From Treponemataceae bacterium (lineage in GTDB: Bacteria; Spirochaetota; Spirochaetia; Treponematales; Rectinemataceae), in assembly GCA_963667725.2 (NCBI GenBank), contig CAXXHO010000003.1, positions 1,632,001 through 1,696,000 on the forward strand: 64,000 bases of DNA, read 5' to 3'. The translations under genes were made by a program, and so were the position numbers. The notes beneath the pieces are model-generated. The model saw only the letters and a list, made by a program, of their open reading frames with translations, was not told the DNA's origin and did no database searches. Below are positions 1-24,153 of this stretch, one piece after another (positions within the stretch are counted from its first letter, which is position 1; the number at the start of each line of letters is the position of its first letter).

Positions 1-354
1 CATGGTGGTGTCTATCTTCCCTATAGCGCCGGATCCCGAGTCTTCCGAGGCTTTCTCTGGCTCACCGATGATCCTCGCTTCGAAGCACAACACTGGGCCA
101 CGAATCTGTCAGGAAAATGTGGCGACCGCACACAAGTGCGCCTTACGATCGAGCTGCCTGAAGGAACAAAGATAAAGCCCTGGAACACTATCGCGAGAAC
201 GCTCTTTCTCTTGAGCCCCACCGATCTATGTGCCTTCAACCTCGCGGGGCATTCCGACGGTTCGCACTGGTACCTCTACCGCGGGGTGATCCCCGCTTCC
301 TGGATTATCGAGAAAACGGAAAGAACAAAGGAGTATGTCCATGGCAAGTCTTGA
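1..354 (+). CDS. Phage hypothetical protein, 5'-truncated by window edge
   Basis: Frame 1 is open from base 1 (HGGVYLP...FLWLTDDP...WYLYRGVIPASWI) to the stop at 354; overlaps the start of the next gene. Confidence 0.6.
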   Translation, partial: HGGVYLPYSAGSRVFRGFLWLTDDPRFEAQHWATNLSGKCGDRTQVRLTIELPEGTKIKPWNTIARTLFLLSPTDLCAFNLAGHSDGSHWYLYRGVIPASWIIEKTERTKEYVHGKS

Positions 355-943
355 AGTAATCGAGATCAAGCCCATCAACCTCAAGTACACGGAGATCAGG
401 ATCATTGGTGACACGCCTCTCATCGTTCACGCCTGGAGCGAGAAGATCAAGAAAGAAATGCTCGATCGGCAGATGAAGAAGGCGAAAAACGCGAAAGGTG
501 CTAAGAACCCAGAAGAGGAGTATCTTGCTTCATTCTATCGGCTTCCGGATGGTAAGTACGGCTTCCCCGCAATCGGCTTCAAGGCCGCGGCCGTATCCGC
601 CGGCGGACGGTTTGCCGAAGGTATGAAGATGACGGAGCTTCGGGGATCCTTCTTCGTCCTGGGAGAAGAGGGGAGCGACCTCGTCCCCATCGAGGGCGAG
701 CCTTCCATGAGGGAGGACACGGTCAAGGTCGGGATGGGGGTCGCGGACATACGCTACCGGCCCGAGTTCAGGGTCTGGGCGACGACGATACGGGTGAGAT
801 TCAACGCGGACAAGATCAGTCTCGAGCAGCTTGTGAACCTGTTCAATCTGGCGGGATTTGGGGTTGGGGTTGGCGAGTGGCGCCCTGAACGCGACGGTCA
901 ATTTGGCTGTTTCCATGTCGAGGTCAATGCCCCTCAAGGGTAA
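335..943 (+). CDS. RAMP/Cas7-like phage protein (candidate Vipr-like RNA-binding effector)
   Basis: ~200 aa; N-terminal IRIIGDTPLIVH strand, FPAIGFKAA helix and C-terminal Gly-rich loop GFGVGVGEWRPERDGQFGCF, matching the RAMP/Cas7 motif order; AAGGAG RBS just upstream (start 335 or 341). Confidence 0.7.
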   Translation: MSMASLEVIEIKPINLKYTEIRIIGDTPLIVHAWSEKIKKEMLDRQMKKAKNAKGAKNPEEEYLASFYRLPDGKYGFPAIGFKAAAVSAGGRFAEGMKMTELRGSFFVLGEEGSDLVPIEGEPSMREDTVKVGMGVADIRYRPEFRVWATTIRVRFNADKISLEQLVNLFNLAGFGVGVGEWRPERDGQFGCFHVEVNAPQG

Positions 944-1100
944 TGCCTCGTTGGAATATGACTCGGTTAGGTGCGGCTAGGCCGGGAAGGGCATGGCTTT
1001 GTAAGGCAAGGCATGGCAGGGACGGCAGGCAGGGGATCATGGAAGAGGCGATCGTACCGGAAGAGGAAAAGCGCAACGACGCTCTTTCTTCTGGCGCGAG
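944..1100 (+). ncRNA. Candidate guide-like ncRNA: periodic GGY-NN array plus downstream hairpin
   Basis: Intergenic (next real start is 1136); 12 in-phase 5-mers at 965-1024; imperfect stem-loop at ~1057-1095. Confidence 0.6.
965..1024 (+). repeat. 5-nt periodic array (GGY-NN)x12
   Basis: GGT-TA GGT-GC GGC-TA GGC-CG GGA-AG GGC-AT GGC-TT TGT-AA GGC-AA GGC-AT GGC-AG GGA-CG; 9 of 12 triplets are GGY. Confidence 0.9.
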
Positions 1101-1135
1101 GCGCGAAGGCTCTGGATAAGGGCAAGGAGTGGTAC

Positions 1136-1834
1136 ATGGTGTACAAGTGGAAGGAAGACTCGCCCCTGGTGAAGAAAGCGGATCCTCAGGCGATCGCGCG
1201 AGAGATCCTGACGATCGGCGGGGCGTCGGTACGGCCGAAGGATCTGGTTCAGGAAGCGTACTTGAAGAAAAACTCCGAACTCCACAAGTGCTTTGAGTGG
1301 GACAATACGGTCGCGGCCATCGAGTATCGAAAGTCCCAGGCGAAGGAGATCCTCTACTCGCTCGTGAAGGTGGAGAGCACGAAGCACGGCACCATGGAAG
1401 TGCTTGCTTTCGTTGAAAGCAGCCCCGTCTCGCACTCCCCAGAGACCGTACACTTTTCCGTTCGCGATGAGACAGAACGGCAGAAACATGAGACGAAGAA
1501 GCCCAAAGAAGCGCCCCCCTCGTTCCACCAAGGGCCGTTTGTGGCCATGGATGATACGGTGGGTACCCCTCCCCCTCTAAAGCGATCCTACGACGATCCT
1601 GAGCCCGCGACAGCGAAAGAACGAGAACAGGCGCCCGGCGAAGCGAGCGAGGAACGAGAAATTCAGGAAGGGAGTGACATGGAGGAGCTTATCAGGAGGC
1701 TTTCATCGATCCAGGATGAGCTCATGACGTATGGACGGTTTGAGGATCTCGGGGAGAAGCTTGGGGCATTGATCGACGAAATAAAAGAAAGAACGACTCG
1801 CGGGACTTCCAAGCTTGTTGCCAGTGTCGCGTAA
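1136..1834 (+). CDS. Phage hypothetical protein (LHKCFEWDN..AA..YR..QA motif), possible partner of the RAMP-like gene
   Basis: ATG at 1136 with AAGGAG at 1124-1129; ordered N-terminal domain followed by a low-complexity tail. Confidence 0.75.
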   Translation: MVYKWKEDSPLVKKADPQAIAREILTIGGASVRPKDLVQEAYLKKNSELHKCFEWDNTVAAIEYRKSQAKEILYSLVKVESTKHGTMEVLAFVESSPVSHSPETVHFSVRDETERQKHETKKPKEAPPSFHQGPFVAMDDTVGTPPPLKRSYDDPEPATAKEREQAPGEASEEREIQEGSDMEELIRRLSSIQDELMTYGRFEDLGEKLGALIDEIKERTTRGTSKLVASVA

Positions 1835-1846: not shown

Positions 1847-3136
1847 ATGGGAAGAATACGAAGTATAAAACCAGAATTCCCGCAATCGGAGAGCATTGGC
1901 AGGATGACCCGCGATGCCCGGCTTTGTTTTATTGAACTATGGACCATCGCCGACGATGAGGGAAGACTCCGGGGAAACACGCGGATGCTCGCGAGTTTAC
2001 TGTTTCCCTATGATGATGATGCCCCTGGCCTCATAGGCTCATGGCTTTCTGAAATCGAACGGGAAGGCTGTATTGTGCGCTATGAGGGTGCAGGACAGCA
2101 TTATGTTCAGGTATCGAACTGGGCTGCCCACCAGAAAATTGACAAGCCTTCACCGTCAAAGTTCCCGCCTCCCCCTGCAAAAGCCGAGACGCCTTCAGCG
2201 GCTGAGAGTACTCCACGCCAATTCGCCGAGGATTCGCGAACTATCGATACATCCTCGCGACCATTCGCCGAGGATTCGGCGAGTATTCCCCGAGGACTCG
2301 ACGAGGATTCGGCGAATGATCGAAGAACCTTCGCGACGGATATGGATCTAGGAAAGGATCAAGGAGAAGAAGGGAAAGGATCTTCCGCGCGCGAGGATTT
2401 ATCAAGCGAAGAGGGCGAGGAAAACAAAGAAATAATGACGGAGTGTCTTGTCCAAGAAGGTCATGATTCGTTTATGTTGGATCCGTCACTAGCAACGATG
2501 AAGCAGGATCATGACGATGTCATGACGAACCATGACGATATCATGAGAGAGAGCAAGCCTACTCAGCAAGAAGAACAGAAAGAAGAGAAGACGCGCATGT
2601 GTGAGGATCAGACTCCAATCCGAAAGACTTCATCCCGCGGGGCGTCGGCGAATGAGCCCGTCATCTTTTCGGAGCTTCCTCAATTCAAGATCGCCGGCTA
2701 TTGGTTCAGAAGGTACAATCAAGTGACGGGGATCACGCTCCTTCCTGATGAACGGGCAAACCACGCGGCAAAGGAGCTTTATGAAGCCTTAGGGAAGAAC
2801 AACACACTCGCGCAGCGCGCGGTGGATTACTACTTCGAGAACTGGCGAGAACTCTGGTTCGCTCAGAAGCGTATGCCGAAAGAGACGCCTCTTGAGAAAC
2901 GACAGTGGTCCTTCACGTTCATAAGCTTCACGAAGAACATCCAGGAGATTCTCTCGCTCATGCAAGCCTCTCCAACATCAACGAGTCCACGGACCACGCC
3001 TGAGCGTTGGAGTACAGGGATATCCTTCGATGAGGAGCACATACCCGAAGAAGAACGGGTAGAAAATGCGCGAAAACTATCGGATTTTGTACAGAATCTG
3101 GGCAAAACGAAGCGGGTTTCGTTGCTGGCAAATTAA
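1847..3136 (+). CDS. Phage replication initiator / replisome organiser
   Basis: N-terminal RIRSIKPEF...ADDEGR...HQKIDKPSPS motif typical of phage initiators; internal direct repeats. Confidence 0.75.
   Translation: MGRIRSIKPEFPQSESIGRMTRDARLCFIELWTIADDEGRLRGNTRMLASLLFPYDDDAPGLIGSWLSEIEREGCIVRYEGAGQHYVQVSNWAAHQKIDKPSPSKFPPPPAKAETPSAAESTPRQFAEDSRTIDTSSRPFAEDSASIPRGLDEDSANDRRTFATDMDLGKDQGEEGKGSSAREDLSSEEGEENKEIMTECLVQEGHDSFMLDPSLATMKQDHDDVMTNHDDIMRESKPTQQEEQKEEKTRMCEDQTPIRKTSSRGASANEPVIFSELPQFKIAGYWFRRYNQVTGITLLPDERANHAAKELYEALGKNNTLAQRAVDYYFENWRELWFAQKRMPKETPLEKRQWSFTFISFTKNIQEILSLMQASPTSTSPRTTPERWSTGISFDEEHIPEEERVENARKLSDFVQNLGKTKRVSLLAN
2220..2550 (+). repeat. Iteron-like direct repeats inside the replication gene (putative origin)
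   Basis: CGAGGA(T/C)TCG at 2227, 2269, 2291, 2302; CATGACGA-like at 2510, 2521, 2531, 2542. Confidence 0.55.
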
Positions 3137-3163: not shown

Positions 3164-3355
3164 ATGACCCTTGAATACGAAGATATCGAAGAGCTGAGGA
3201 AGGCGCTCGCAAATGTTGAATTCGGCAAGGTGGAGATGCAGATTCATGAAAGTATCATCATTTCAATAACCGTTACCACCGTTAAGAAGAAGCCAGTACC
3301 CAAGAAGGATCGAATCGTAGTACATACGCCCTCAAAACCATTAAAATTGGTTTAA
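3164..3355 (+). CDS. Small phage protein (YezD/DUF2292-like)
   Basis: 63 aa, GAGGAG RBS, L..V.FG.V...IH pattern; paralog at 9922. Confidence 0.6.
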   Translation: MTLEYEDIEELRKALANVEFGKVEMQIHESIIISITVTTVKKKPVPKKDRIVVHTPSKPLKLV

Positions 3356-3398
3356 CCTTTAAATCCACAAATTTATAAGGTTGAAGCAATTGTTAGGC
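3339..3398 (-). repeat. attC site, internally deleted and degenerate
   Basis: R'' GCCTAAC at 3398-3392 and L-box arms retained; central loop lost; R' decayed. Confidence 0.65.
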
Positions 3399-3401
3399 TT
3401 T

Positions 3402-4217
3402 TTATCCTTTATTCTCTTGTCCGCAATCTGTACCATCATTACTACTTTTCTCAGCTTCTTTTATTTTACTTTTTTGTTTTTCAATTTTCTTAATAGTTTT
3501 CAAATATTTATCATTAGTCTCAATTGCTTCAGGTGTATCTATAATTTCTCTTTTTAATACATCATTTACTATTATCGTATCTATTTCATCTACTTCAAAT
3601 TTAATTGTAGGATCAACTTTTCTAAATTCTCTTTTGATTGCTTCTATTACATATTCAGACCTAATAAATGCTCCTATATAATATTTATTAACAATCATCT
3701 TATGCTGTGTAAACTCATCTATTGCATTCTTCTTAATTCCTTCTTTACAAATAATATATAATTTATCTAAATCATTTCTATTTTTAATTTTTACATCTAA
3801 AATATTAAACTCACATACAAAATCAGTTTTTATTGGCTTTTCAAACTTAACTTTATATACTTTCCATACCACACCATTTGTAAGTATAATCCACTCATTT
3901 CCATTATTAGCACCGTAATCAAGTACTTGTTGATAATGCTTATCGGCAAGAGTCGTTCCAATTGCCTTTACTTCAATAAGGAACTTTACACTACCATCAA
4001 TTTTTACTGCTAAATCACAATATGTACTTTTTATGCAATATTCACGAGTAACTTCAGTATATTTATCATATCCAAAGAGAAGCGTTAATATATCTGTAAC
4101 TATTACAACAGTATCAGCTTCATTTATATCTCTATCTTTAGCTTGTTCTAGAATTTTTTGAATTTTCCCTAAATTTTCTTTGAATCTTTCAATAACCTTT
4201 ACATTGATTTGTGCCAT
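3402..4217 (-). CDS. Type I restriction enzyme HsdR N-terminal-like (PD-(D/E)XK) nuclease, cassette
   Basis: NEADT...LFGYD...E...CDLAV...LIEVKAIG...Q...Y...ILTNG pattern. Confidence 0.8.
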   Translation of the reverse strand: MAQINVKVIERFKENLGKIQKILEQAKDRDINEADTVVIVTDILTLLFGYDKYTEVTREYCIKSTYCDLAVKIDGSVKFLIEVKAIGTTLADKHYQQVLDYGANNGNEWIILTNGVVWKVYKVKFEKPIKTDFVCEFNILDVKIKNRNDLDKLYIICKEGIKKNAIDEFTQHKMIVNKYYIGAFIRSEYVIEAIKREFRKVDPTIKFEVDEIDTIIVNDVLKREIIDTPEAIETNDKYLKTIKKIEKQKSKIKEAEKSSNDGTDCGQENKG

Positions 4218-4343
4218 ACAAAACTCCTTTGATAAAATGCTTAAATTGCTAATCTTTAAAATTAGCTTTGTCTCGCGCCGAAAGCGTCATCCTAACATTG
4301 GCAATTAAAGTTTAGTATGTATCTTTGCGCGCCGAAGACGTCA

Positions 4344-4468
4344 ACCTAACATTGGCTTGACCCTTAACGCCAGATCCTGAGCGTAGCGAGGGATTGGCGT
4401 GGTTTATGCATTGTTGTTCTGCACAAACCATGACAAAGGGCGTTATAGGGTTGAAGCATTTGTTAGGC
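4344..4468 (-). repeat. attC site
   Basis: GCCTAAC...GTTAGGT imperfect palindrome, 125 bp. Confidence 0.9.
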
Positions 4469-5221
4469 GATAGCACTTCTTCTTTTCTTACACTTTATCA
4501 CTATATAAATTGGCTCATTAAGTAAATCTTCGTATCTATCATTATTACTCTCTCTCCATTTTACTGGAGGTCCTGGTTCTTGTATCTCTTTTACTTCTAA
4601 CCCAGCTTCTCTTAGCCCATTTATATAGTCAGAAAAAGTATAATGATAGCTTTTGCATACAACTCCATTCTTACTCTTTCCATATTTTGTCCATGGTTGA
4701 TAGTACTCTCGTATCTCTTTATGTAGATATCGTATTTTCCATTCTCCATCTTTATCAAATGGGTATTCTGCAGTATATAGTGGATGCATAGCCGATAGGA
4801 TAACAATTCCATTTTCTGCAAGAACATTATGGATACTTCTAAAAGCTTCTTTAAGATCCGGAAAGTAATGTGTGGCTGTTGATGAAAAAACAAAATCAAA
4901 CTTTTCAGACACTATCTCACTGATGTCTTCTACTGAACACTTTTGAAACTTAATCCGATAACTTTTATTCTTATTTTTAGCATAAGCTAACATTTCTTCA
5001 GATATATCTATTCCAAGAATAGATTTTGGCTCATATGAATCAAAGTAGAACGAGAATCTTCCAGTTCCACATCCAATATCCAAGATTGTTTTATCTTTCA
5101 ATATTGGAAGCATTTCTTTAATACAAGGCCATTCTATCTCATTACTATATGAATTTTCTCTATTCGTAAAATCTTCATAATCTGAAGTCATTGAATCCCA
5201 TATCGTTTCGATGTCTTTCAT
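4463..5221 (-). CDS. Class I SAM-dependent methyltransferase, cassette
   Basis: ILDIGCGTG motif; stop codon lies within the attC R'' box. Confidence 0.9.
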   Translation of the reverse strand: MKDIETIWDSMTSDYEDFTNRENSYSNEIEWPCIKEMLPILKDKTILDIGCGTGRFSFYFDSYEPKSILGIDISEEMLAYAKNKNKSYRIKFQKCSVEDISEIVSEKFDFVFSSTATHYFPDLKEAFRSIHNVLAENGIVILSAMHPLYTAEYPFDKDGEWKIRYLHKEIREYYQPWTKYGKSKNGVVCKSYHYTFSDYINGLREAGLEVKEIQEPGPPVKWRESNNDRYEDLLNEPIYIVIKCKKRRSAIA

Positions 5222-5273
5222 ACTTCCTGTTTCCTAATGAAAAGTATTTACTTTCTTAGCGCCTAAGGCGTCT

Positions 5274-5379
5274 GCCTAACGATGGCTTGACCTGCGAAAG
5301 GCGTTGGCGCGCAATTTGCATTGCAACTCACGCAAATTGCGTGACAATACCCTGAGTCAGGTCGAAACGATTGTTAGGC
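5274..5379 (-). repeat. attC site
   Basis: GCCTAAC...GTTAGGC, 106 bp. Confidence 0.9.
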
Positions 5380-5420
5380 GACTTCATTTTTTAAGAATTA
5401 ATGAAATAATGCTTTATATA

Positions 5421-6086
5421 TTAATCAGAGAATCTGCATGCTCCCACAAATGCATACCCAAGCCTCGTAAACTCAACTCGTTGGTATGAAAACCATTCTG
5501 TACTACTACTACTCTCATCCCCCATTAAATAAGAACTCTGTGATGCTCTGCAAAGATTGAGTCTTACTAGGTTACCCATTAATAATTCATACTCCCATGT
5601 AGCTATCTTAAATACTTCTTGAATTTCGTTGAATGTTGCAATCCAACCAATTTGTTTATGAACACGATCTGTCATCCATTCCAAAATTCTTGCCTCAATT
5701 GAGGAAATCTCAGAGAGTATTTTTGGAAATGCAGGGGGAACTTTTTCGGGTTTCTCAGCAGCACTAGCTAATAATGCAGCCCATCTGTTTTTCATATCAG
5801 CTTCTTCTTCTAATGAACCCGCTTCAAGTAAGGGAGCAACTACTTTTGGTAGGAGACGTTTCGGTTCAATGCCCTTCTTCTCAAGAAAGGCTTTTGCTTT
5901 TAAAATTAGGTTTACTTTGTTCTTGAATCTCCAAAAGGCAACTGTATCACCAATTAATCCACCAGACTGTTCTAGACCAGGAACTATCAATTTATCAAGA
6001 TAATCTTTGGCGATCTTGGCCGTCTCTTCAATTCCTTTCTCAAGTGCAATACGCATCGGATCATTGGGTTGATGATTGTCACTCAT
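5421..6086 (-). CDS. Abi-alpha/DUF4393-like protein, cassette
   Basis: PLLEAGSLEEEADMKNRWAALLASAA...FPKILSEIS..EARIL and C-terminal LVRLNL..FTRLG..FV pattern. Confidence 0.7.
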   Translation of the reverse strand: MSDNHQPNDPMRIALEKGIEETAKIAKDYLDKLIVPGLEQSGGLIGDTVAFWRFKNKVNLILKAKAFLEKKGIEPKRLLPKVVAPLLEAGSLEEEADMKNRWAALLASAAEKPEKVPPAFPKILSEISSIEARILEWMTDRVHKQIGWIATFNEIQEVFKIATWEYELLMGNLVRLNLCRASQSSYLMGDESSSSTEWFSYQRVEFTRLGYAFVGACRFSD

Positions 6087-6219
6087 ACTACTCAATCCTT
6101 AATATTTAGCTCCGTTTTTAGAGGCTCATTTTTTTTATTTATTTCAAATAATTCAAAGAAGAAATATACTTTGCGCAATACGCGTCCGCTTAACATCTCT
6201 TTATATATTTAATTAATGA

Positions 6220-6501
6220 CTATAGTTTACCTTGGAGTTTATGAGATCTTTGCCAGCCTGCTGCACTGCGAGATTGCACATAACATATAAGGAGATCGGC
6301 AACAGATCTTGATTGAACCCAACATATTTTTGAAGTTGCTGATGCGTCACTTTGAACAAAACACCATATGCCATCTACACCATCTGCGGGTCCGCGTGAT
6401 TCCGATATACAAACGAGCAAATCAGCTACAGATCTAGATTGTACTTCGCATACTAGATAATCTGCTGATGACCTAGATTCTTTTACCCTAATTAATGCCA
6501 T
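6220..6501 (-). CDS. Small repeat protein (DUF6150-like), cassette
   Basis: Repeated V.SRS.ADL.V units; GGAGG RBS before ATG at 6501. Confidence 0.7.
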   Translation of the reverse strand: MALIRVKESRSSADYLVCEVQSRSVADLLVCISESRGPADGVDGIWCFVQSDASATSKICWVQSRSVADLLICYVQSRSAAGWQRSHKLQGKL

Positions 6502-6534
6502 AGTTCCTCCTATTTTAATAAGCGTGAAGCGTCC

Positions 6535-6661
6535 GCCTAACATTTTCGCTTAACCTTTAAATCCTGGCCTGAGCTACTGCGAAGGCTTGGCATGGTTTGT
6601 GCATTGTTGTTCCTGCACAAACCATGCCAAAGGATTTATAAGGTTGAAGCAGTTGTTAGTA
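6535..6661 (-). repeat. attC site
   Basis: TACTAAC...GTTAGGC imperfect palindrome. Confidence 0.9.
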
Positions 6662-6674
6662 GGTTACTCGAAAA

Positions 6675-8150
6675 TTAAGTATCAATTCTTAATTTATGAT
6701 TTTCTTCAGCTTTTTGTATATCTTTTGAGCTAATAAATTGACTAGATAGACTAAGCCACTTCAATACTTCAAAGTATGCATTATAATATTTTTTACTATC
6801 AAATTTAAAATAAACAAAATTATTTATATTAGAGGGTATTATAACTTTATCTTCAACAAGTACAAGAATTTTTTTTGAATTTTCTAATCCATAGTGTCTT
6901 AAGAAAAATCCTATTTCGTGATACACATTTGGACGCGAATAATTATTTTTTTTCTCAGTTATATCATTTTTAAGAATTGCAATAGTAAGTGTAGATTCAA
7001 GCATTGTTGAATATATTTTTTTTGATAATTCTTCCCCAAATCCAACTTGAACAATATTTGTTTTTGCTCCCTTATCAAAGAAATCTTCTTTAAGCCACTT
7101 ACTTAATTGAAACGCATATTCATTAGGTATTGTCTTTCCTTTCTTCTCATCATATTCCCAACTACATGTAATAAATATTTTTTCTTCTGTTGGTATAGAT
7201 ATTACTTCTCTTACATTGTTCTTTAAAACATATACAAGACTTGCTTTCCATTTATTTAAAGCAATTTCATCTAAAGAATTTTTTTCATTATCGATACTTT
7301 TTGAATTAAAAAATGTTGCTTTACAATTATAATTAATGTCTTTAGGATCCTTTATTCTTTTCAAACCGTCTTTCTTATTACTTTTATAGTATGTAGCATC
7401 ATCTGATATCATAGTACTATCTAATGTCCATAAATATCTCCAATGCTCTGCTAGAGAATTAAAAAGTTCAACGTCATCTGTTTCATTTGCACAAAGCATT
7501 GGATAATTTAGTAATAATTTATCAGAATTTATATTTTTTTTTGTTAGTATATATGCATCAGAATAAATATTATTATTAATTTTTAATATAGATACATTTA
7601 AGCTAGAAGTTGTAAATCTTACCATTACTTTATTTTCTTCATTATCAAAAGAAAGTAATTCTTCATTTATATAACTATGAATTGTTTTCAGAGAATTATT
7701 AAGATTTCTTACTGTCATTGAACCCCAAAATGTTCTTTCATCTATTTCATCAACTAAATCAAAACTTCTATAATATAATGGTTCATCAATAGTAGTTCTC
7801 TTTCTGCTATTTTCAGCTTGAAGAATAGAATACGTATAATCTGAAAATGGATAAACAAATAAAAGCCTAAATCTTACAGCAATCCCTTGATCGTTAATTG
7901 TTTTTATATTTTTTATTGTTTCTTGCAGTTTTTTAGCAATCGATGGATCGGAAAACATTCCCCCTAAATCAAAAAGAATGCTACCAGATAAACCTGCATA
8001 ATCTATTGTAGCTATTTTCTTATACTTACTTTCTTCTAGATCTAGTGGGTTTTTTTTGTCGTAAGCAGATTTAATTAATGAGTCAAGACATAAATCATTA
8101 ATTATTTTTTCATTTAACTCTTTTGAATATCTACTTTCATAATATTTCAT
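6675..8150 (-). CDS. Protein with C-terminal TIR-like nucleotide-binding domain, cassette
   Basis: C-terminal KIFITCSW...SRPNVYHEIGFF...ILVLVE...IPSNI motif; N-terminal ~300 aa unassigned. Confidence 0.7.
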   Translation of the reverse strand: MKYYESRYSKELNEKIINDLCLDSLIKSAYDKKNPLDLEESKYKKIATIDYAGLSGSILFDLGGMFSDPSIAKKLQETIKNIKTINDQGIAVRFRLLFVYPFSDYTYSILQAENSRKRTTIDEPLYYRSFDLVDEIDERTFWGSMTVRNLNNSLKTIHSYINEELLSFDNEENKVMVRFTTSSLNVSILKINNNIYSDAYILTKKNINSDKLLLNYPMLCANETDDVELFNSLAEHWRYLWTLDSTMISDDATYYKSNKKDGLKRIKDPKDINYNCKATFFNSKSIDNEKNSLDEIALNKWKASLVYVLKNNVREVISIPTEEKIFITCSWEYDEKKGKTIPNEYAFQLSKWLKEDFFDKGAKTNIVQVGFGEELSKKIYSTMLESTLTIAILKNDITEKKNNYSRPNVYHEIGFFLRHYGLENSKKILVLVEDKVIIPSNINNFVYFKFDSKKYYNAYFEVLKWLSLSSQFISSKDIQKAEENHKLRIDT

Positions 8151-8239
8151 TTTTCACTCCTAAAATAAATTTCTTTGGTTTTGATACTTGTATTTATATA
8201 TATATCAAACTTAAATATTTTTTCTTGCCCGAAGGGTCA

Positions 8240-8364
8240 ACCTAACATTGGCTTAACCCTTAACGCCTGTTCCTGAGCGAAGCGAAGGATTGGCGTGGTT
8301 TTTGCATTGTTGTTCTGCAAAAACCATGACAAAAGGCGTTATAGGGTTGAAGCATTTGTTAGAT
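8240..8364 (-). repeat. attC site
   Basis: ATCTAAC...GTTAGGT, 125 bp. Confidence 0.9.
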
Positions 8365-8373
8365 TTCTTTTAT

Positions 8374-8835
8374 CTATTTAGGAAATACTAAATCTACTGT
8401 TTTAAAAGACTCTGGTAATTTTAAATCTTTTACTAATCCATCATATATAATCATTACAATATCATTGTATTTATAATATTCTTCTTTTTGTATTTGTATT
8501 CGTTTTATCCATTTATCTTTTACATATTTATTTTTGATGCTTTTATCATACTCATCTACATCATGAGTTTCTAGCAAGATACCATTTTTTCTCATTAATC
8601 CAATTCTTCCAATAATTTCTTCATTCTTATTGCTACATTCAATTACTATTATTGAGTGATCACCATTTTTGCTTCCAGTAAATTCAATTATTCCTTTTTC
8701 ATAAGGGATAATGAATTTTTTCTTATTATCAAAAAGCAAATCATATTTACTACAACTTCCTAGAGATACACATAACAACACAACTTGAAGGAAAAGAATT
8801 AGAAAACGCTTCTTATTTCTAATATTTTTACTCAT
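8374..8835 (-). CDS. Putative lipoprotein, first cassette of array A
   Basis: Basic N-terminus, hydrophobic stretch, LGSC lipobox. Confidence 0.65.
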   Translation of the reverse strand: MSKNIRNKKRFLILFLQVVLLCVSLGSCSKYDLLFDNKKKFIIPYEKGIIEFTGSKNGDHSIIVIECSNKNEEIIGRIGLMRKNGILLETHDVDEYDKSIKNKYVKDKWIKRIQIQKEEYYKYNDIVMIIYDGLVKDLKLPESFKTVDLVFPK

Positions 8836-9041
8836 AGAGTTTGCCTACTTTATCTGAATAAAATATTCTCTATATAGATTTGCTTACTTCTATGGAAACA
8901 AATATTACTTCTTTTAACCGAACTCTTGTTAACCTAACACTAACAATAAAATGATCAGAAAATTGCTTTTATTACCTAATTCACTAATTTTGCAGTGCCA
9001 CCGAAATTATGCAATGTTTTATTTCTGCCCGCGCAGCGTGA

Positions 9042-9565
9042 ATCTAACAATAATTGGATTGTTCCAGATAAATTTGAAATACCAAGAATTACCTTTCTTT
9101 GTAATGGGATAGATAAGTTCTATCCTAAAAAATAGAATATTTTTTGGAAAAGAAATACAAATTTCCTGTTATACGAATATATCTTTTATACTGTTAGGCA
9201 TAAATTCTAAATGATAATAGTATATTTATAGTGGTAGTATCATTTTCTCAGGAAAGGCAACTATGCTTCTCATCTCTCTTCTAATGACTATACTAGGTAA
9301 TGTTCTTTCCTAGCAGCCCTTCCCGGCTGTTACTGAAAGACGCTTGATAACAACACATGAGCGTGTTCTTCGCCGAAACAGAATGAATACGCTCGGGGAA
9401 CTTTCCTAAACTTTAATATTTTATGTTTCTTTGTTATCATAAAGAGTCTATCTGGAAAGTCAATCTGAAAACGATATTCTCTATTGGTTAATGTAGAGTA
9501 ATCAACTCTTTTTACATCATTAATTATTACTATATCAGTAATCATTAAGCAGGCAAAACCTCATA
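9042..9565 (-). promoter_or_regulatory. attI-like site and leader of array A
   Basis: GTTAGAT core without an upstream attC palindrome; ~520 bp homologous to 22058-22576. Confidence 0.6.
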
Positions 9566-9770
9566 AAAGGAAAGGAGCATCATGTTCAGAGACTCTCTAC
9601 ATCATAGATTGAGTACACTTTTCTACATCCAGCCTAACCTGCAATCAGGAGAGATTGGCGGATTTGAGCACACTTCATCTACTCGATCGTCATAAATAGC
9701 ATCTTAGCGAGCTTCTCTAATATACCATCCTCTTCTTCTGTAACGACTTATCAGGTAAATCAAGAACAAA

Positions 9771-9897
9771 AGTATTGAGGTACCCTTCGAAAGCAAATAT
9801 AAATCCTAAGTAAATCAAACAAAAAACGTTAGATACTATCAAATTTTAAGCTGAATTAGGGCAAAACAATGCGATTTTTACTACAGGCACCTCGTAG
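9771..9897 (+). pseudogene. Decayed copy of the 3' end of the replication gene
   Basis: Colinear matches to 3011-3140 (CCTTCGA, ACTATC..ATTTT, GGGCAAAAC.A.GCG). Confidence 0.55.
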
Positions 9898-9921
9898 TAA
9901 GGCACTGTGTAAGGAGAATCA

Positions 9922-10140
9922 ATGACCCCGGGAAACGAGGATATTAAGGAGCTGAGGGAGGCGTTGGTCAATGTCAAATTTGGGGAGGTGGAGGTACGGG
10001 TTCATGAAGGATCTAATTTTTCAATGACGATCACTACCTTAAAGAATAAGCTTGCGGCTAACAAAGAGAGGGTTGTCATACATTCCCGCCTACGGAGTAG
10101 CGACAAAGGAGAAGTGAGACATAAGCAATGCGATTCTTAA
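9922..10140 (+). CDS. Small phage protein, paralog of 3164-3355
   Basis: EDIKELREALVNVKFGEVEVRVHE vs EDIEELRKALANVEFGKVEMQIHE; AAGGAG RBS. Confidence 0.65.
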   Translation: MTPGNEDIKELREALVNVKFGEVEVRVHEGSNFSMTITTLKNKLAANKERVVIHSRLRSSDKGEVRHKQCDS

Positions 10141-10735
10141 GCTCACAAGTTATATCCTTAACACCGAGGGAGGGGGGGGCAAATCTCTAGGGCATTTAGG
10201 TGTAAACCGCAGCGTTTCGGCTCACTCCCACTCTACGGATTCAGGGGGTAAGGGGGTCACGAAAAAATATTCTAAATAATCTTCAATTTTTTAATAAACC
10301 AGATCATAGTCCAAGCATTGTTAAAAGGGAGATAAAGGCTCTAGGAACAGTTGTATAATCAGGAATGACATTAATACTAGGATGTGTTATATAATGTGCT
10401 CCAGAATGTACAAAACTTGATTCACCTTTCAAATGTAGCTCGATTAATCACAAAGTAAAAGCTAATCTTTCTCCTATTACCTGCTTTTTCTAACCGTTAC
10501 CATTCATGGAAACTAGGGACCGATGAAATTACTAATAACCTTATTCGCTAATACTCATCAAAAGGATCCGACATGAAACATGTTTCACTAATCGCTGTAA
10601 CCGTATTGCCTACAAACTCAATATGAAACATCGTAAGAAGTTTGGTTATAAAAACCATTTCGGGTTATTCTACAACGTCGCCTCTCCGTTGCCCCTCGAC
10701 CTTGAATTCAGGTTAATCTCATGGATACTCAGTTC

Positions 10736-11509
10736 TTATGCTTTCTTGCCAATATAAAAAACATACCCATAGTACTGTTTGTATTTTGAATATAGCTCAG
10801 CTTCATACTTCATGTTTTCAACAAAATCTTTAGCAGCACTATTCCCTGCATGTTCACTTAAAAATGTTTTTTGTATTGCTTGTTGCGGTTTGAAATAAGT
10901 ATCAATCCAGCATGTTTCTGGTAACGTAAACGCAGCAACAAGCCTATACCCTGTGTTTTGCATTACAGAAATATTATACCCAATTGTATCCATTTCAGGG
11001 ACAGCATCAACCCAGAACTTTTCAATTTCAGTAGGTCGTTCATCGGTAAACCATGACTCATATGTTATAGCAATATAGCCATCTTTCTTTAGAAATTCTT
11101 TCCAATAGTTCAATCCCTTTCTAAATCCAATATTGGCAATGGCCCCTTCAGACCATATAACATCAAATTTTTCATTTCGAAACGGTAAATTATCCATTGA
11201 ACCAACGATACCTTTTACCCTATTCTGCAAACCGAGTCTTTTAGCGTTTGCATTAAATTTACCTACAAAATCGGGGAAAATATCAAGCCCAGTAATAGTA
11301 CCTTTTGTATGTTGTGCAAGAGTCATCGTTTGACCGCCTGTTCCACAGGCAAGATCCGCAATTTTTATTTCACTTGAAAAATTATCAATAAATCTTAATG
11401 CCCTAATAGTAGATTCTGAACTACCAGGTCCCTGCCGTTCCAACCTTCCAAAATAGTCACAGATCAATTCTAAATCAAAATCATGAATTGACATTTCTTT
11501 ATTTTCCAT
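10736..11509 (-). CDS. Class I SAM-dependent methyltransferase, terminal cassette
   Basis: [18 protein letters not shown] and FDVIWSEGA motifs. Confidence 0.9.
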
Positions 11510-11629
11510 AGGTAAAATCCTTTATCAAGAGAATACTACTATACGGCTAAATCTTTTTTAAAGAGCAGTGAAAATGATATTACCTTTAACCCTTACTATT
11601 ATCCTTTTTTCTTCTTGCGCGAAGCGTCA

Positions 11630-11788
11630 ATTTAGCATTCGTTTAGCCTACGAGCGAATTCCCGAGCCACGCGAGGGATTGGTGTCATTCTTGCTCGCTT
11701 CTTACTAATTATGGCTTTCTTCTCTTCTTCCTTTCAACCTCACCAGAATAATGACAACGTGCGAGTCAGGTTGAAACGGTTATTAGGC
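11630..11788 (-). repeat. attC site, degenerate cores
   Basis: GCCTAAT...GCTAAAT with internal arms intact. Confidence 0.75.
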
Positions 11789-11793
11789 GATAA

Positions 11794-12546
11794 CTATTTT
11801 TTTACTCCAACGACCTTTGTCCATGTAAAGTTTCCACCATCAAGCTCAAGCATTTCTACGTCACCAGTCCTTTTTAGTATCCCGGCTTCTTTCAGTGTTT
11901 TATCCCAATGTAGCCATATATTATACCCATTAGGCATATTCTCTGCTTTTAGTACATCAACACATTCTGACCTGGCCCATAACCTTGACCACCATTCCGG
12001 TGTATGGTGTGTATAATTGTATGGTTCCCAATATTCCCCTATTCTTTCAATATCTTCTTGCGTCCATTCATGGTTTACACCAGGTACAACAATGCCTATC
12101 TCACCCTTTGGTTTGAGGTATTTCGTTATGTATGACACATACATCTCATCTGTACCAAAATAGTGATATGCATCTAGGCTTACTACTGCATCAAAAAAAC
12201 CATACGCAAATGGCAGGGAATGTGCTTCTATGTTAATGGGATATACCAAATCTTCAACTTCTTTATCCTTTATTCGTACAAAGTTATCTACTGCCTTTAT
12301 CCAAAGATCAGCAGCCCAAACCTGGGCCTTATATTCTTTGGCTATAAATATTGAACTTAATGCTTTCCCGCATCCAAGATCTAATACACGCATCCCCGCA
12401 TGCAATCCCATTGTTTCACATAGATACTCTACAAGCCATGTTGAGCTTGGTCCCATCTCGTTTTCATTCAACCATTCTATGTCATATTTTGCTGATAACG
12501 GGAATTGTGGTGACTTCATCTTTTCTTGAAGCATTAGCTTGTCCAT
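11794..12546 (-). CDS. SAM-dependent methyltransferase, cassette
   Basis: MGPS, VLDLGCGKALSSIF and LPFAYGFFDAVVS motifs. Confidence 0.9.
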   Translation of the reverse strand: MDKLMLQEKMKSPQFPLSAKYDIEWLNENEMGPSSTWLVEYLCETMGLHAGMRVLDLGCGKALSSIFIAKEYKAQVWAADLWIKAVDNFVRIKDKEVEDLVYPINIEAHSLPFAYGFFDAVVSLDAYHYFGTDEMYVSYITKYLKPKGEIGIVVPGVNHEWTQEDIERIGEYWEPYNYTHHTPEWWSRLWARSECVDVLKAENMPNGYNIWLHWDKTLKEAGILKRTGDVEMLELDGGNFTWTKVVGVKK

Positions 12547-12650
12547 GATTAATCCAATCCTCACAACATCATTAGTTACAATACCATTACTATTTTACTT
12601 GCGCGAAGTACAAGTCCGCCTAACATTGGCTATAACAATCTTTTTGCTTT

Positions 12651-12983
12651 TCATCTTGTTTTCGCTATCTGAAGCAGTTCTATTGGCATTCCTTCCTCTT
12701 CAATAAATGCAACAAGATTCCCTTCTGACGGGCTATTAGGCAGAATTATTACCTTTTTATCTTTGATGTATTCATACAGATCTTCTACTTCAAAGGCAAG
12801 GTGTGGTCTTGTTTTTACGAGTTCTGGAAGAAGACAATCCTCTTCATACCGCATATACTCAATTCCATATATGCTATTCTCAAATCCATAATGATAGCAT
12901 TTATATTCTTTGAGATATACTTCCCCAATTATTCGTTCTTTTACTGGTACACCAAGATGATGATATTTCAGTCGATTATCCAT
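12651..12983 (-). CDS. VOC/glyoxalase-like protein, cassette
   Basis: YHHLGVP, PHLAFEVEDL and PIELLQ motifs. Confidence 0.75.
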   Translation of the reverse strand: MDNRLKYHHLGVPVKERIIGEVYLKEYKCYHYGFENSIYGIEYMRYEEDCLLPELVKTRPHLAFEVEDLYEYIKDKKVIILPNSPSEGNLVAFIEEEGMPIELLQIAKTR

Positions 12984-13030
12984 AGTATTTTTGCCTTTAT
13001 CCTGAATTGTGATGCACGCAAAGCGTGTCC

Positions 13031-13155
13031 GACTAACATTTGCTTACCCCTTAACGGCCGCTCCTGAGCAAAGCGAAGGATTGGCGTGGTTTGTGCATTG
13101 TTGTTCTTGCACAAACCATGACAAAAGACTTTTAAGGTTGAAACATGTGTTAGCC
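13031..13155 (-). repeat. attC site
   Basis: GGCTAAC...GTTAGTC. Confidence 0.85.
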
Positions 13156-13166
13156 GATTCTTTTCT

Positions 13167-14156
13167 CTATAGTGTTCCCGATTCTACCAATTCCAAGAAA
13201 ATTTTCCCAAGCTTTGGGTCAAACTGAGTTCCTAAATTGGCATATATTATATCTATTGCTTCTTTTACATTAAGTGCTTTTCTATATGATCTAGTAGAAG
13301 TAATTGCATCATAGGTATCAGCAAGAGCTAAAATCCTACTTCCGATATTTATTTCATCTCCTCTTTGTCTATCAGGATATCCATTTCCGTCATATCTTTC
13401 ATGATGATGTTTGGCAATATCAATTACTTCCTTAAGATTCAAAAAGGGTGATAGTATTTGCGCTGTTATTGTTGGATGCTTCTGCATCTCAATCATTTCT
13501 GCTTCTGTGAGTTTTCCCGACTTATTTAGAATTGTTTCGCTTACACCGATTTTCCCAATATCATGAAGCTTTGCAGCAAGTTCAATATCCGCATAGAGTT
13601 GTGATTGACCATATACTTCTTGCACATATTTTGTTGATATTTTTGTTACTCTCTCCGAGTGACCTTTTGTATATATATATTTAGCTTCTAGAGTATAGAC
13701 TAAAGAATTTAGGGACTCAATAAAAAGACTATTTAATCGATCAGTTAATCCTGTTATTTCTAGTTTGAGCTTTTGATTATACTTAAGGTTTTCTTCCTCT
13801 ACTCTATGTTTTTCAGTTATATCTCTTGATAATACTATTGAGCCTACTTTTAAATCTTTATCATTAGAAATGATTTGATAAATATTTTCATAAACTTTAC
13901 CGTTAGCATTATCGATAACCATTCTCTTGAATGATTTTTCTTTTTCTTGCAAATAAACAACAGCACGCCGAACCTTTTCATGTGATTCTGGTTTATGACA
14001 GCTAATAATATTTTGTCCAATTTTTTCTTCTCGTTTGATATGTCTTATCTTTTCAGCAGCACTATTCACAAAAATGATTTCATCATTTTCATCAGCTACT
14101 ACCAGCCCATCTGGAAGATTTTCAAGGATAGTTTTGTAAATCATTTGATCTGACAT
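13167..14156 (-). CDS. PAS + HD-GYP phosphodiesterase, cassette
   Basis: N-terminal PAS; LHDIGKIG and HHERYDGNGYP motifs. Confidence 0.9.
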   Translation of the reverse strand: MSDQMIYKTILENLPDGLVVADENDEIIFVNSAAEKIRHIKREEKIGQNIISCHKPESHEKVRRAVVYLQEKEKSFKRMVIDNANGKVYENIYQIISNDKDLKVGSIVLSRDITEKHRVEEENLKYNQKLKLEITGLTDRLNSLFIESLNSLVYTLEAKYIYTKGHSERVTKISTKYVQEVYGQSQLYADIELAAKLHDIGKIGVSETILNKSGKLTEAEMIEMQKHPTITAQILSPFLNLKEVIDIAKHHHERYDGNGYPDRQRGDEINIGSRILALADTYDAITSTRSYRKALNVKEAIDIIYANLGTQFDPKLGKIFLELVESGTL

Positions 14157-14191
14157 AACTGTTTTTCTCCTTAATTCTGCCTAGAGGGTCT

Positions 14192-14309
14192 GGTTAACAT
14201 CGACTTTAAGCTTGGAGCTTCGATCGCGAAGCGGTTGGCGCACTTTTTGTGTGAACTTCTCGCAAAATGTGTGACAAAGAAGCGACTCATCTTGAAGCAG
14301 TTGTTAGAA
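14192..14309 (-). repeat. attC site
   Basis: TTCTAAC...GTTAACC. Confidence 0.85.
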
Positions 14310-14840
14310 TTCCTCTTTTACTTTTGATTCAAATACTATCGGCAAATAAGCTTCAAATATTGTAACAAATTCCTTTGTCTTCATCATCTTGTGTATTTCT
14401 TCTTTACTTACTATCCTCGCTTCTTCTACTTCTGTTTCTTGACATACTATATCTTCAATCTTAACCTTTTGTTCGAATAGCCATACATCAACAAAGTTAG
14501 GGCTAAATGTATTAGTCCCATCGTACTGATGTATGATTCTTCCATTTTTTGGATCCAGATCTATTCCTAATTCTTCTTTTGTTTCCTTCAATGCTGTGGT
14601 AAGGCTATCGTGGCCTGCTATAGCTGATCCGCCAGTACATTCCCATAAGCCAGGGAATATTGGCCTATTATTCTTTCTCTTTGATATAATATATCGATTC
14701 TTTGATGTTCTTACCCAAACGTGTACAACTAAATGGAAATCACCGTCTGCAAGTTTTTTCCCTCGTTGTATTGTTCTTCCAGTTTTATTCCGATTTGAAT
14801 CAAGAATATCCCAATACTCATTTTCCATATATTGTTCCAT
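14304..14840 (-). CDS. NUDIX hydrolase, cassette
   Basis: GGSAIAGHDSLTTALKETKEELG Nudix box; stop codon in R''. Confidence 0.9.
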   Translation of the reverse strand: MEQYMENEYWDILDSNRNKTGRTIQRGKKLADGDFHLVVHVWVRTSKNRYIISKRKNNRPIFPGLWECTGGSAIAGHDSLTTALKETKEELGIDLDPKNGRIIHQYDGTNTFSPNFVDVWLFEQKVKIEDIVCQETEVEEARIVSKEEIHKMMKTKEFVTIFEAYLPIVFESKVKEEF

Positions 14841-14865
14841 GTTTTCATGTGATCTTAATAGGTAA

Positions 14866-15020
14866 TTCTTGCATTCGCTTAACCTGTTAGCGCATACCCA
14901 AGCGAAGCGAGGGTTTGGCAACATTATTGCGGCTATCTTAAGTGCAGCTTTCTTTATTCTATACGTGCATCACGCAAGAATGATACCAAAGCGTGAGTTA
15001 GGCTTAAGCATGTGTTAAGT
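14866..15020 (-). repeat. attC site with mutated R'
   Basis: ACTTAAC...GCAAGAA (GTTAGAA expected from the next cassette's R''). Confidence 0.7.
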
Positions 15021-15032
15021 CGTTTTTCTTTA

Positions 15033-15614
15033 TCATATTTCATATTTCTTTAATTCTTCATTACCATATAATTCGAAATACTCTTGTGAAATTATATCCA
15101 TCAATATTTCATCATAGTATTTGTTCCCAATAATTCGTCTATGCCTATGTCTCCCAATAATTTTGAATCCTACTTTTTCATATAAATGTATCGCTGGTTT
15201 ATTGAATTCCCATGTCCCAAGCTGAACACTCTCTAGATTTATATCGATAAATGCATGTTTCAACATTAATTGTATTGATTCTATTCCAAAACCTTTTCTT
15301 CTGTTTTCTTCTCCATAAATCATAATACTCAACGTTCCAGATCTATTATATATATCAATTGAATTGATACTTATATCTCCAATTATTATATTAGTATCTT
15401 CTCGAAATATTACGTAGGTTTGATCTTTTTGATATCCTTCTAGTTTATCTTTCATTTGTTTTTCATATACAGCACTGCCGCAATTCCGACCATATACTTT
15501 TATATGGTCATCATTCATATAATTTGCAAGAATTGGAATATCATTTTCTTGAAGTGGATTAAGATAAACCTTTTTACCAACCATAGACATAAACTTTGTC
15601 ATAAGTAACTCCAT
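15033..15614 (-). CDS. GNAT (RimJ/RimL-like) acetyltransferase, cassette
   Basis: RRKGFG and N.PAIHLYEKVGF motifs. Confidence 0.9.
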   Translation of the reverse strand: MELLMTKFMSMVGKKVYLNPLQENDIPILANYMNDDHIKVYGRNCGSAVYEKQMKDKLEGYQKDQTYVIFREDTNIIIGDISINSIDIYNRSGTLSIMIYGEENRRKGFGIESIQLMLKHAFIDINLESVQLGTWEFNKPAIHLYEKVGFKIIGRHRHRRIIGNKYYDEILMDIISQEYFELYGNEELKKYEI

Positions 15615-15646
15615 TTAGCATTTTCAGTCTTCATTTTCGTAAATCG

Positions 15647-15761
15647 ACCTAATATTCGTTTAGCCTTTAAATCCGTGCCCGAAGGGCTTGGCACGTTTTG
15701 TGCGTTGTTGTTCTACACAAAACATGCCAAAGGATTTATAAGGTTGAAACGGTTGTTATGC
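15647..15761 (-). repeat. attC site (R' G>A)
   Basis: GCATAAC...ATTAGGT. Confidence 0.8.
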
Positions 15762-16766
15762 GCTTTTTCTTAAGTTACTATAATAATCTATAAGCCCAAT
15801 CCTAAACGCTATATCATTAACCTTTCTCTCTTCTTTTCTCCAATCATTTTCAAGCGATATTCCTGAATATGCACCCCATTTCGTAAACGAATATGGTCTC
15901 TTAATATTTTTGATACTTTCTATCATGTTCTCAACATTATTTAGATTTCTGTTCACTTTTTTAAGGGTATTGATGTCTCTAAGTAATCCCATTCTTGCTA
16001 AGTATTCGTTTCTTATTAACCATTCTGCTTTTTTATCATCATTACATTCAATAAAATCGGTATCTATTTCATGCATTAAGTAACTACCTGGAGCTATCAA
16101 TTGCCCTTTATAAGGAATATAGACATTAGGAATGGGCTGCAATCTACAAAGTCTTTCAAATGCTTTTACCATCATTTCAATAGTATGGACACTTTTCCAA
16201 GATTTTGAAAATGCCAATACTCTAAAATTATAATAATCAGGGAATAGCTTCCCTTCTTTATAAACCCATGTGTCGCTCTTCTTTACTGCAAAGTCATCTA
16301 TCGAACTATAATCAAGTACTGCTTTAAAGCACTTTAATGAATGCTCAATACGTTCAATAACATCAGGATGCGAATCGAACCCTGAACTCGCTAAGAGTGA
16401 TGCCTTTATCGTTACCGATGCACTATACCCCTTATCTTCAACGTACTTACCTACTTTCGTGATTCCTCTTGTAAACAGTGCGCCGTTATTATCTGTTTGA
16501 CGAACTAATTCAAGGATTCTTTTATAATGCGGCTCATCTTTATCAATTCCATACTCAGAAAGGATTTTTGCTAAACTTTCTATACTATTATACCCATGAA
16601 ACAGCACCTTCTCGAAGCTCATAGTATCTATAATATTGAAAACATCTTTTATGATTTTCATATCAGCAATTTGATTGTTGATATCAGATGAGCAACTTTT
16701 AAGTAGTCCTAAAGCAAACAATCGTTTACGCATTGCTGGAGAAGGATTTCTTATGTAGCGAAACAC
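15756..16766 (-). CDS. Hypothetical protein, cassette
   Basis: GTG at 16766 after AGGAGA; stop codon in R''. Confidence 0.75.
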   Translation of the reverse strand: MFRYIRNPSPAMRKRLFALGLLKSCSSDINNQIADMKIIKDVFNIIDTMSFEKVLFHGYNSIESLAKILSEYGIDKDEPHYKRILELVRQTDNNGALFTRGITKVGKYVEDKGYSASVTIKASLLASSGFDSHPDVIERIEHSLKCFKAVLDYSSIDDFAVKKSDTWVYKEGKLFPDYYNFRVLAFSKSWKSVHTIEMMVKAFERLCRLQPIPNVYIPYKGQLIAPGSYLMHEIDTDFIECNDDKKAEWLIRNEYLARMGLLRDINTLKKVNRNLNNVENMIESIKNIKRPYSFTKWGAYSGISLENDWRKEERKVNDIAFRIGLIDYYSNLRKSA

Positions 16767-16799
16767 TATTTCTCCTGATTGCGCGCGCGTAGCGCGTCC

Positions 16800-16931
16800 G
16801 CATAACATTGGCTTGACCCTTAACGCGTCCATTGGTGTGATTCTTGCCACACTTTACGTTACAGCTCCTGCTTTACGTCGATTCGCAAAAACCATGACAA
16901 TAGCGTTATAGGGTCGAAGCGGGTGTTAGGT
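16800..16931 (-). repeat. attC site
   Basis: ACCTAAC...GTTATGC. Confidence 0.9.
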
Positions 16932-16939
16932 GCTATTTT

Positions 16940-17632: not shown

Positions 17633-17659
17633 TTTTCCTCTGCGTGAAGCGTCCACCTA

Positions 17660-19300: not shown

Positions 19301-19301
19301 C

Positions 19302-19419
19302 ACCTAACATTTTTGCTTAAGCTGGGAGCTTCGATCGCGAAACGGTTGGCGCGCTTTGTGCATTGTTGTTCTGCACAAAACGTACTAAAGGATTTATAAG
19401 GTTGAAGCATTTGTTCGGC
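19302..19419 (-). repeat. attC site
   Basis: GCCGAAC...GTTAGGT. Confidence 0.85.
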
Positions 19420-22576: not shown

Positions 22577-22596
22577 TACAGAACAGTGCAGTGTGT

Positions 22597-24109: not shown

Positions 24110-24152
24110 GTTCGGGACCAAGATGTCGGAGGTTCAAATCCTCTCAGCCCGA
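24110..24152 (+). other. att site: 3' half of tRNA-Pro(CGG)
   Basis: TTCGGGA anticodon loop, GGAGGTTCAAATCCTCT T-arm and CAGCCCGA acceptor strand; 5' half absent. Confidence 0.85.
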
Positions 24153-24153
24153 T

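Follow-up and report, generated by a model that had tools for sequence, protein, structure and literature searches.

We consider it likely that the 64-kb window analysed here (the whole stretch of DNA, C3:1632001-1696000 of the host genome) carries a VIPR system on a defective prophage, and that this system is aimed at the carrier's own phage family. The locus has a gene for a RAMP/Cas7-like protein, a guide tract of GGY triplets and NN pairs, and a partner gene in the same direction, and a second system of the same kind lies on a related remnant in the same genome. The system itself is not new; it belongs to a staggered-array clade that is distinct from SUSP1 and has a different partner. Positions below are those of the window unless a contig or locus is named.

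341..943, plus strand: vipr gene for a RAMP/Cas7-like Vipr of 200 aa (the ORF opens at 335, 202 aa from there)
854..907, plus strand: G-loop coding stretch, residues 174-191, by alignment with SUSP1 Vipr
960..1019, plus strand: vrRNA repeat tract of 12 pentamers, the first (960-964) degenerate and the last being the clade's GGCAG terminal unit
1015..1032, plus strand: relic of staggered-array junctions (GGCAG units, 1-nt overlap), read from the sequence, with no further full guide
1048..1104, plus strand: hairpin between guide and vap (MFE -27.2 kcal/mol, z -2.25)
1136..1834, plus strand: partner (vap-type) gene of 232 aa, placed by homologue alignment, of a family adjoining vipr in 62 of 86 homologous loci
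1847..3136, plus strand: phage replication initiator directly downstream of the partner, same direction (PHROG replication-initiation families, E 1.5e-33)
24110..24153, plus strand: attR of the carrier, a 44-bp repeat of the tRNA-Pro 3' end (blastn 44/44, ARAGORN)
C3:1616332-1616375: attL of the carrier, about 15.7 kb upstream of the window
G000:C3:507152-508548 (L024:12134-13548), minus strand: second VIPR system, in a related prophage remnant beside tRNA-Glu/Gln

The Vipr protein and its partner

The ORF at 335-943 ends in a Gly-rich loop, as an earlier note on this DNA had described for a gene of about 200 aa, and its likelier start is ATG 341, with AAGGAG sitting 7 nt before. The sole PDB match of the product by phmmer was SUSP1 Vipr (36pp_D, E 7.3e-8, residues 129-197), and a profile search gave the same chain at E 1.4e-8; both times the C-terminal third alone aligned, which sets this protein apart from SUSP1 Vipr. 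The Pfam search returned no family, and in PHROG the protein matched phrog_4652. The AF2 model (pLDDT 84) contains the RRM core, thumb and G-loop of the minimal RAMP protein by which VIPR is defined. Csm3/Cmr/Cas7-like chains rank first for this model in two fold searches (Z up to 10.3), so the fold proposed in the earlier note was borne out by structure prediction. The likeness to type III CRISPR Cas7 (Csm3/Cmr4) in RRM core, thumb and G-loop is clear (Foldseek E 3.5e-6; VIA Z 10.3, rmsd 4.0 over 148 residues), but identity is 8-17%, there is no cas operon, and a pentamer guide stands in place of the crRNA.

In the accessible part of the cryo-EM work on SUSP1 Vipr, the GGY-gripping residues are H17, R138, D177, W178 and R179 (10.64898/2026.04.26.720927). 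The phmmer alignment places D177, W178 and R179 on E181, W182 and R183 of the present protein, and H17, R138 and K33 map to H32, R142 and K49, the N-terminal stretch being weakly aligned. Conservation was read from 79 of 120 listed proteins, the query counted in: W182 and R183 are invariant, E181 is at least 90% conserved, and the whole set of H32, R142, E181, W182 and R183 is invariant or nearly so across these close homologues. Homology to SUSP1 Vipr, the Cas7/RAMP fold and the retained GGY-gripping residues agree with the VIPR identity that the earlier note had suggested, and VIPR systems are indeed described in the literature.

The partner starts at ATG 1136, not 971, in the orientation reported before. 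Its N-terminal domain (1-90) is conserved, an insert at about 100-175 is lineage-specific and of low confidence, and a helical hairpin forms the C-terminus, according to the model. The family lies next to vipr in 62 of 86 homologous loci and matches phrog_15946. We found no Pfam, PADLOC or convincing PDB sequence match for it, and the fold search gave matches limited to the helical hairpin (Z <=7.7) and one uncharacterised siphophage protein. There is no detectable homology with the genes next to vipr in ESCO50 and LESphi2 (hhalign probability 0.1%), which served as proxies for the type II vap1. The Viprs of ESCO50 and LESphi2 fall on a separate long branch of a quick tree, where long branches make placement unsure. 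Judged by these proxies, neither the vap1 partner nor a Vipr inside the type II clade, as in SUSP1 and P. fulva, was found here. Because the partner is unlike the ESCO50 and LESphi2 genes and their Viprs branch separately, the system is probably not type II.

No cas gene was annotated in the element and the genome gave no Cas1 match, in line with the earlier note, which saw no CRISPR array or other cas gene in the window; the cas operon and CRISPR array of Class 1 CRISPR-Cas were not found by element annotation and genome Cas1 search. The two 3.6-kb VIPR loci had no Rfam match, and the repeat scan of the window spanned 3100-24300.

The Vipr clade counts 6574 proteins at E <=0.001, and a search of 100 relatives' genomes with the Vipr query found no Vipr. 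Gordonia phage Pipp (L126) and 29 mycobacteriophage records have Vipr genes 40-42% identical; Pipp has a 9/10 GGY tract, apparently ahead of vipr at a hypothetical ORF whose annotation may be wrong. Culturable actinophages such as Pipp would be an easier bench model for the clade. In the VIPR literature we found nothing on the topic beyond three preprints (10.64898/2026.04.26.720920, 10.64898/2026.04.26.720927 and 10.64898/2026.10.15.759431), in none of which 'spirochaet' is a term; the locus or clade may already be in the figures, tables S1-S3 or data S1-S4 of the first.

The guide tract and its grammar

The first GGY, at 965, is 21 nt past the vipr stop, as stated earlier. From 965 to 1019 GGY opens 9 of 11 in-phase pentamers (the other two open with GGA at 985 and with TGT at 1000), against at most 6 in 2000 dinucleotide-preserving shuffles of 944-1135. 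The periodic tract proposed for 944-1135 therefore exists, but its extent is just 960-1019 plus the junction relic to about 1032. Guide 1, as we call it, has about 10-11 informative NN pairs. A GGY score of 8/10 occurs at only two sites of the host genome (4.2 Mb, 8 contigs), this tract and one beside the second vipr. A 7/10 tract at C3:2243639 was treated as chance, having no GGCAG end and lying far from any vipr.

Three relatives with 93-99% identical Vipr have the identical NN string. The sole change in their tract is GGC to GGT, which is one change (Y to Y) in about 70 nt versus several in the next 100 nt.

Homologous loci were taken from IMG/VR and JGI, 86 in number with several duplicates. 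A sense-strand tract (at least 6 GGY in 10, within 1.5 kb of the vipr homologue) is present in 68/86 versus 2/86 antisense, and in 51 of the 57 loci that include 1 kb of downstream DNA. The pentamer entropy in the clade is 0.5, 0.9 and 1.3 bits at the GGY positions, low partly by construction because tracts were selected for GGY, versus 1.9 and 2.0 bits at NN. Adjacent tracts with conserved GGY and variable NN, expected of homologues by the earlier note, are indeed a property of this clade. The GGY tracts of L111 (8/10) and L107 (7/10) run opposite to the vipr strand, unlike all other loci.

The junction GGCAG terminates 214 distinct tracts in 49/86 loci. A guide ends in GGCAG and the next starts on its last G, with a spacing of 49, 54, 59 or 64 nt in 105/134 pairs. 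This is like the staggered vrRNA arrays in the legend of fig. S18 of the discovery paper (10.64898/2026.04.26.720920), in which guides overlap by 1 nt at spacings of 5n-1; unlike those, the array at 960-1032 has shrunk to one full guide and two junction stubs. In the clade, arrays lie upstream of, between or downstream of the genes of the locus. Other features also match VIPR as described in the discovery paper: a Vipr of about 200 aa homologous to that of SUSP1, 9-16 GGY/NN repeats (here 11-12 units), a two-gene locus, a proviral setting and a 1-nt skip on the wobble base. The pseudoknot tail of SUSP1 was not recognised here, and the clade uses the GGCAG junctions with 1-nt overlap.

A hairpin had been reported after the tract, and the one at 1048-1104 is stronger in a sister-strain copy (L050, z -4.6). 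In the second copy of the system, with Vipr 88% identical, this region has a different sequence and different hairpins, which makes a conserved guide tail improbable; the hairpin could serve as a signal for 3' protection, processing or termination.

The available SUSP1 work shows filament assembly, a triplex R-loop and transcriptional silencing (10.64898/2026.04.26.720920; 10.64898/2026.04.26.720927). By analogy, and judging from fold and residue conservation, Vipr would polymerise along an RNA from about 960-1019 such that every pentamer is covered by one subunit, with its GGY buried and its NN exposed. The NN string would then bind double-stranded DNA with two bases read and one skipped, and transcription would be blocked as in SUSP1. 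The partner protein may assist silencing, as Vap1 would suggest, and the element 1 copy is presumably expressed.

Carrier, second element and phage relatives

The carrier (element 1) is 39.8 kb long and bounded by the 44-bp direct repeat of the tRNA-Pro 3' end. Its gene order is tyrosine integrase, repressor, excisionase, ParB, vipr, partner and replication initiator, past which comes a low-GC run of attC-flanked cassettes with a DNA methyltransferase. No capsid or terminase was found in element 1, and the host genome (97% complete) had no match to the relatives' capsid and terminase families. The phage system proposed earlier sits on a prophage remnant in a bacterial chromosome and not on a free phage.

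At 3370-21920, cassettes with attC-like repeats stand where relatives have head and tail genes, and the same repeat is found in many copies on contig C5. Among other things the cassettes carry Abi-alpha, a TIR-domain protein, methyltransferases, a deaminase and an IS, and element 1 showed no sign of an integron integrase. Phage-derived scraps recur inside the cassette run (3164-3355, 9043-10257 and 22059-22635). They comprise small ORFs of DUF2292 type, segments that occur twice at a distance of 13 kb, and 90 bp that match the relative L127 at the junction immediately ahead of its small terminase gene.

The second system (in element 2) has a Vipr 88% and a partner 64% identical to those of element 1, and the early region is largely common to both elements at 78-93% identity. 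Between repressor and integrase (L025:3932-17010) element 2 has a NucC-like nuclease, DUF4297-HerA and a Ser/Thr kinase. There is a tRNA-Ser call in its early region (L025:849-933; by ARAGORN C3:515931-516014, which is L025:931-1014); the 3' part also matches element 1, and it is not an att site. Both resident elements appear to be defective prophages of one temperate phage family.

In the sister strain (L050:9920-11497) the tRNA-Pro attL region is joined almost straight to vipr via two short joins. About 16 kb with integrase, repressor and the target of guide 2 (the guide of the second system) was lost, yet vipr-guide-vap was kept. The join creates a fused ORF of 228 aa, and since the same fused protein occurs in Logan and in ENA (P0137), a one-off misassembly is improbable.

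The early module is shared by seven IMG/VR loci to which one early gene led; in four listed of the seven it is followed by terminase, portal and capsid genes. Loci of this family in public collections are few (7 and 16). One member (L140/G745) has a terminase together with its own vipr, array and partner; vipr was absent from four other family records searched, which are fragments.

Guide targets and their meaning

When 158 other clade guides were compared with all collected loci, the top bin held 5 matches with skip 1 and 2 each with skips 0 and 2, a lead of skip 1 that is only slight, and the best match was a vipr gene (24/26). The guides L020:311-375 and L010:2790-2849 decode to conserved stretches of other vipr genes (24/26 and 21/24). 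Computation supports a 1-nt skip, wobble-phased code, and the non-contiguous reading of the NN string predicted earlier is matched with such sites in phage genes.

For guide 1, the best 1-nt-skip sites in four whole family records, all related temperate phages, coincide in one run of codons of the phrog_13625 gene, with 17, 16, 16 and 16 of 22. The site peptide is F-E-x-L-R-Y-A-Y-E, read antisense, the skipped base is the wobble position, and the unit at 960 also pairs with it in 4/4 phages. The summed score of 65 was reached by 0/2000 shuffled guides (dinucleotide order) over 14,028 aligned positions, and by 6/1000 shuffles once homology of the sites is no longer required. The choice of the 11-unit window preceded this comparison; another gene had led to three of the four records, and the phrog_13625 gene, with patterns outside the site, to the fourth. 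The first six units give 12/12 in two phages, the best on ten units is 16/20, and several mismatches are of G-U type, so that 19-20/22 would be obtained under a hypothetical tolerance of such pairs. Guide 1 scores 10/22 at its own element's phrog_13625 copy and 9/22 at that of the second element, both of which read LRDS[ED]I, and 12-16 at more distant homologues. The fifth family record (G749) has no LRYAYE-type site, and nothing above 17/22 was found for the phrog_13625 gene.

These scores are at or just under the 80% cut-off for targets in the VIPR papers. The mismatches lie in the 3' half of the guide, which is the place of first engagement in the SUSP1 structures, as far as the accessible text goes (10.64898/2026.04.26.720927). 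Silencing of the four phages may be poor, as the mismatches fall where engagement would begin. Because of these scores and of the 3' mismatches, the true target of guide 1 is probably a member of the family not yet sampled.

Searches elsewhere gave the following results. In the host genome the best score of guide 1, 16/20, is background, and exact searches of IMG/VR found none with 10 units and none with 9 units from 960; three matches to 9 units from 965 were rejected, none being wobble-phased. With 11 units no target was found in JGI metagenomes or GTDB. Of 400 genomes of the phylum, 26 had sites with no more than 2 mismatches, many of them in AT-rich sequence, and 0/20 loci inspected were wobble-phased; 68 family genomes with up to 3 mismatches gave 5 matches, about the number of the reversed control. 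A relaxed pattern matched L127, from which it had been designed, so this match is circular, and its other six matches are not homologues.

It is also conceivable, though unlikely, that the VIPR is genuine and active and guide 1 is directed at some other unsampled element, the LRYAYE match being stale or coincidental. The best match of 17/22, the mismatches at the 3' end and the few known members of the family would agree with this. However, the same wobble-phased site tops four records with a null of 0/2000, the first six units match fully in two phages, the mismatches are partly of G-U type, and both resident copies differ at exactly the LRYAYE codons. On the preferred reading, with the phage family as target, guide 1 would read the LRYAYE region of a conserved early-operon gene and thereby silence the early and replication genes further downstream in a relative that enters the cell or already resides in it. 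The carrier and the second element would be spared, as their copies read LRDS[ED]I. A competing phage or a promoter had been suggested as an example of a target; the data favour double-stranded DNA inside coding sequences of related temperate phages over a promoter.

For guide 2 one site stands out in the whole host genome (18/20, next 15), and it is in element 1, at window -464 to -432, within an 82-aa DUF736-like gene about 800 bp upstream of vipr. The 18/20 window, one of three tried, was equalled by 1/250 shuffles; with the 13-unit window, significance in the host genome was not reached (49/250). Over 11 units, a window chosen after seeing homologues, guide 2 spells KFPDFYIEAWV. A protein 89% identical to the DUF736-like protein of element 1 (P0128) has exactly this peptide, which means 22/22 at the protein level because the first two codon bases are unambiguous for every residue. 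The sequence in element 1 is RYPDFYVEAWV (19/22), in which R and V are private among 11 homologues, and element 2's own copy has KFPLYFIEAWF (17/22). The differences in the footprints may represent self-avoidance or escape. An exact search for guide 2 in IMG/VR found none, and its high scores in G746-G749 were discounted as partly circular, since the pattern used to retrieve these records overlaps the site.

The family member L140 has a staggered array of five to six guides at L140:5219-5515 and also carries the best-matched LRYAYE site of guide 1. Two of its five parsed guides have their single best host-genome site, wobble-phased, in the integrases of elements 1 (17/18, next 14) and 2 (17/20, next 15), decoding to the integrase motifs MRYTYNTRM and TPYxLRHSF. 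For a further guide there is a partial match, to a methyltransferase gene that is shared, and the remaining two had no match. Taken together, the wobble-phased matches stay within genes of the one phage family.

VIPR guides are known to target related prophages as well as other vipr genes. As far as the available text goes, the SUSP1 and P. fulva systems are characterised and natural targets are given for types II, III and V only (10.64898/2026.04.26.720920), and targeting of resident prophages, recombinases and rival vipr genes with a lower self-match is already published. Like the P. fulva prophage clade and SUSP1 versus the F5 satellite, as far as described in the part of that source available (10.64898/2026.10.15.759431), the present guides point at competing or related elements including integrase/recombinase genes, with a self-match below the rival match. 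In contrast to these cases, the two VIPR-bearing elements here reside in one chromosome; both are remnants of a single temperate phage family and lack morphogenesis genes. The guide of one is directed at the other, and the DUF736-like gene and phrog_13625 are among the targets. The discovery paper found no own-contig match of at least 80% in its three controls (10.64898/2026.04.26.720920), whereas guide 2 matches its own contig at 86%.

Slightly less probable than another target is that the locus is a VIPR relic on a defective prophage, its operon repressed or decaying and its single guide no longer acting. Element 1 is without morphogenesis genes and filled with cassettes, the array is down to one guide with stubs, the partner has a long insertion, and the guide of element 2 may silence the operon upstream of vipr. 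Against a relic speak two intact ORFs, the retention of every known GGY-gripping residue, a tract that changed once in about 70 nt against several changes in the next 100 nt among the 93-99% relatives, and a sister strain that dropped about 16 kb of the element and retained vipr-guide-vap. It is very improbable that the tract codes for protein, either by extending the partner's N-terminus from GTG 971 or as ORF 943-1119, and that the RAMP/Cas7-like protein is an orphan Cas7: frame 971-1834 is open and one database entry (P0122) was called with the long start, but a period of 5 does not fit codons, homologues of the partner start at the methionine of 1136, homologous arrays also lie upstream, between or downstream of the genes, and the NN strings, once decoded, correspond in frame to codons of phage genes.

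The VIPR system, which is probably kin-directed, is of moderate interest for its decodable kin-against-kin targets and its co-resident pair. It provides decoded guide-target pairs for a distant staggered-array clade, which support the same 1-nt-skip code there. It also offers a natural test of self-avoidance by VIPR, with graded natural sites of 22 (P0128), 21 (L127), 19 (element 1) and 17 (element 2 itself) of 22 for guide 2, and of target escape by amino-acid change. Tentatively, we speculate that repressor-type VIPRs persist on dead prophages as a standing, host-retained immunity against one temperate phage family, and that co-resident remnants police each other. If this were true, the guide of element 2 would sit on the early operon of element 1, about 800 bp upstream, and mute vipr and rep; the K to R and I to V changes of element 1 would be a non-synonymous escape from a wobble-blind guide; and the deletion in L050 of the targeted stretch and the integrase, with vipr-guide-vap kept, would be a step toward domestication.
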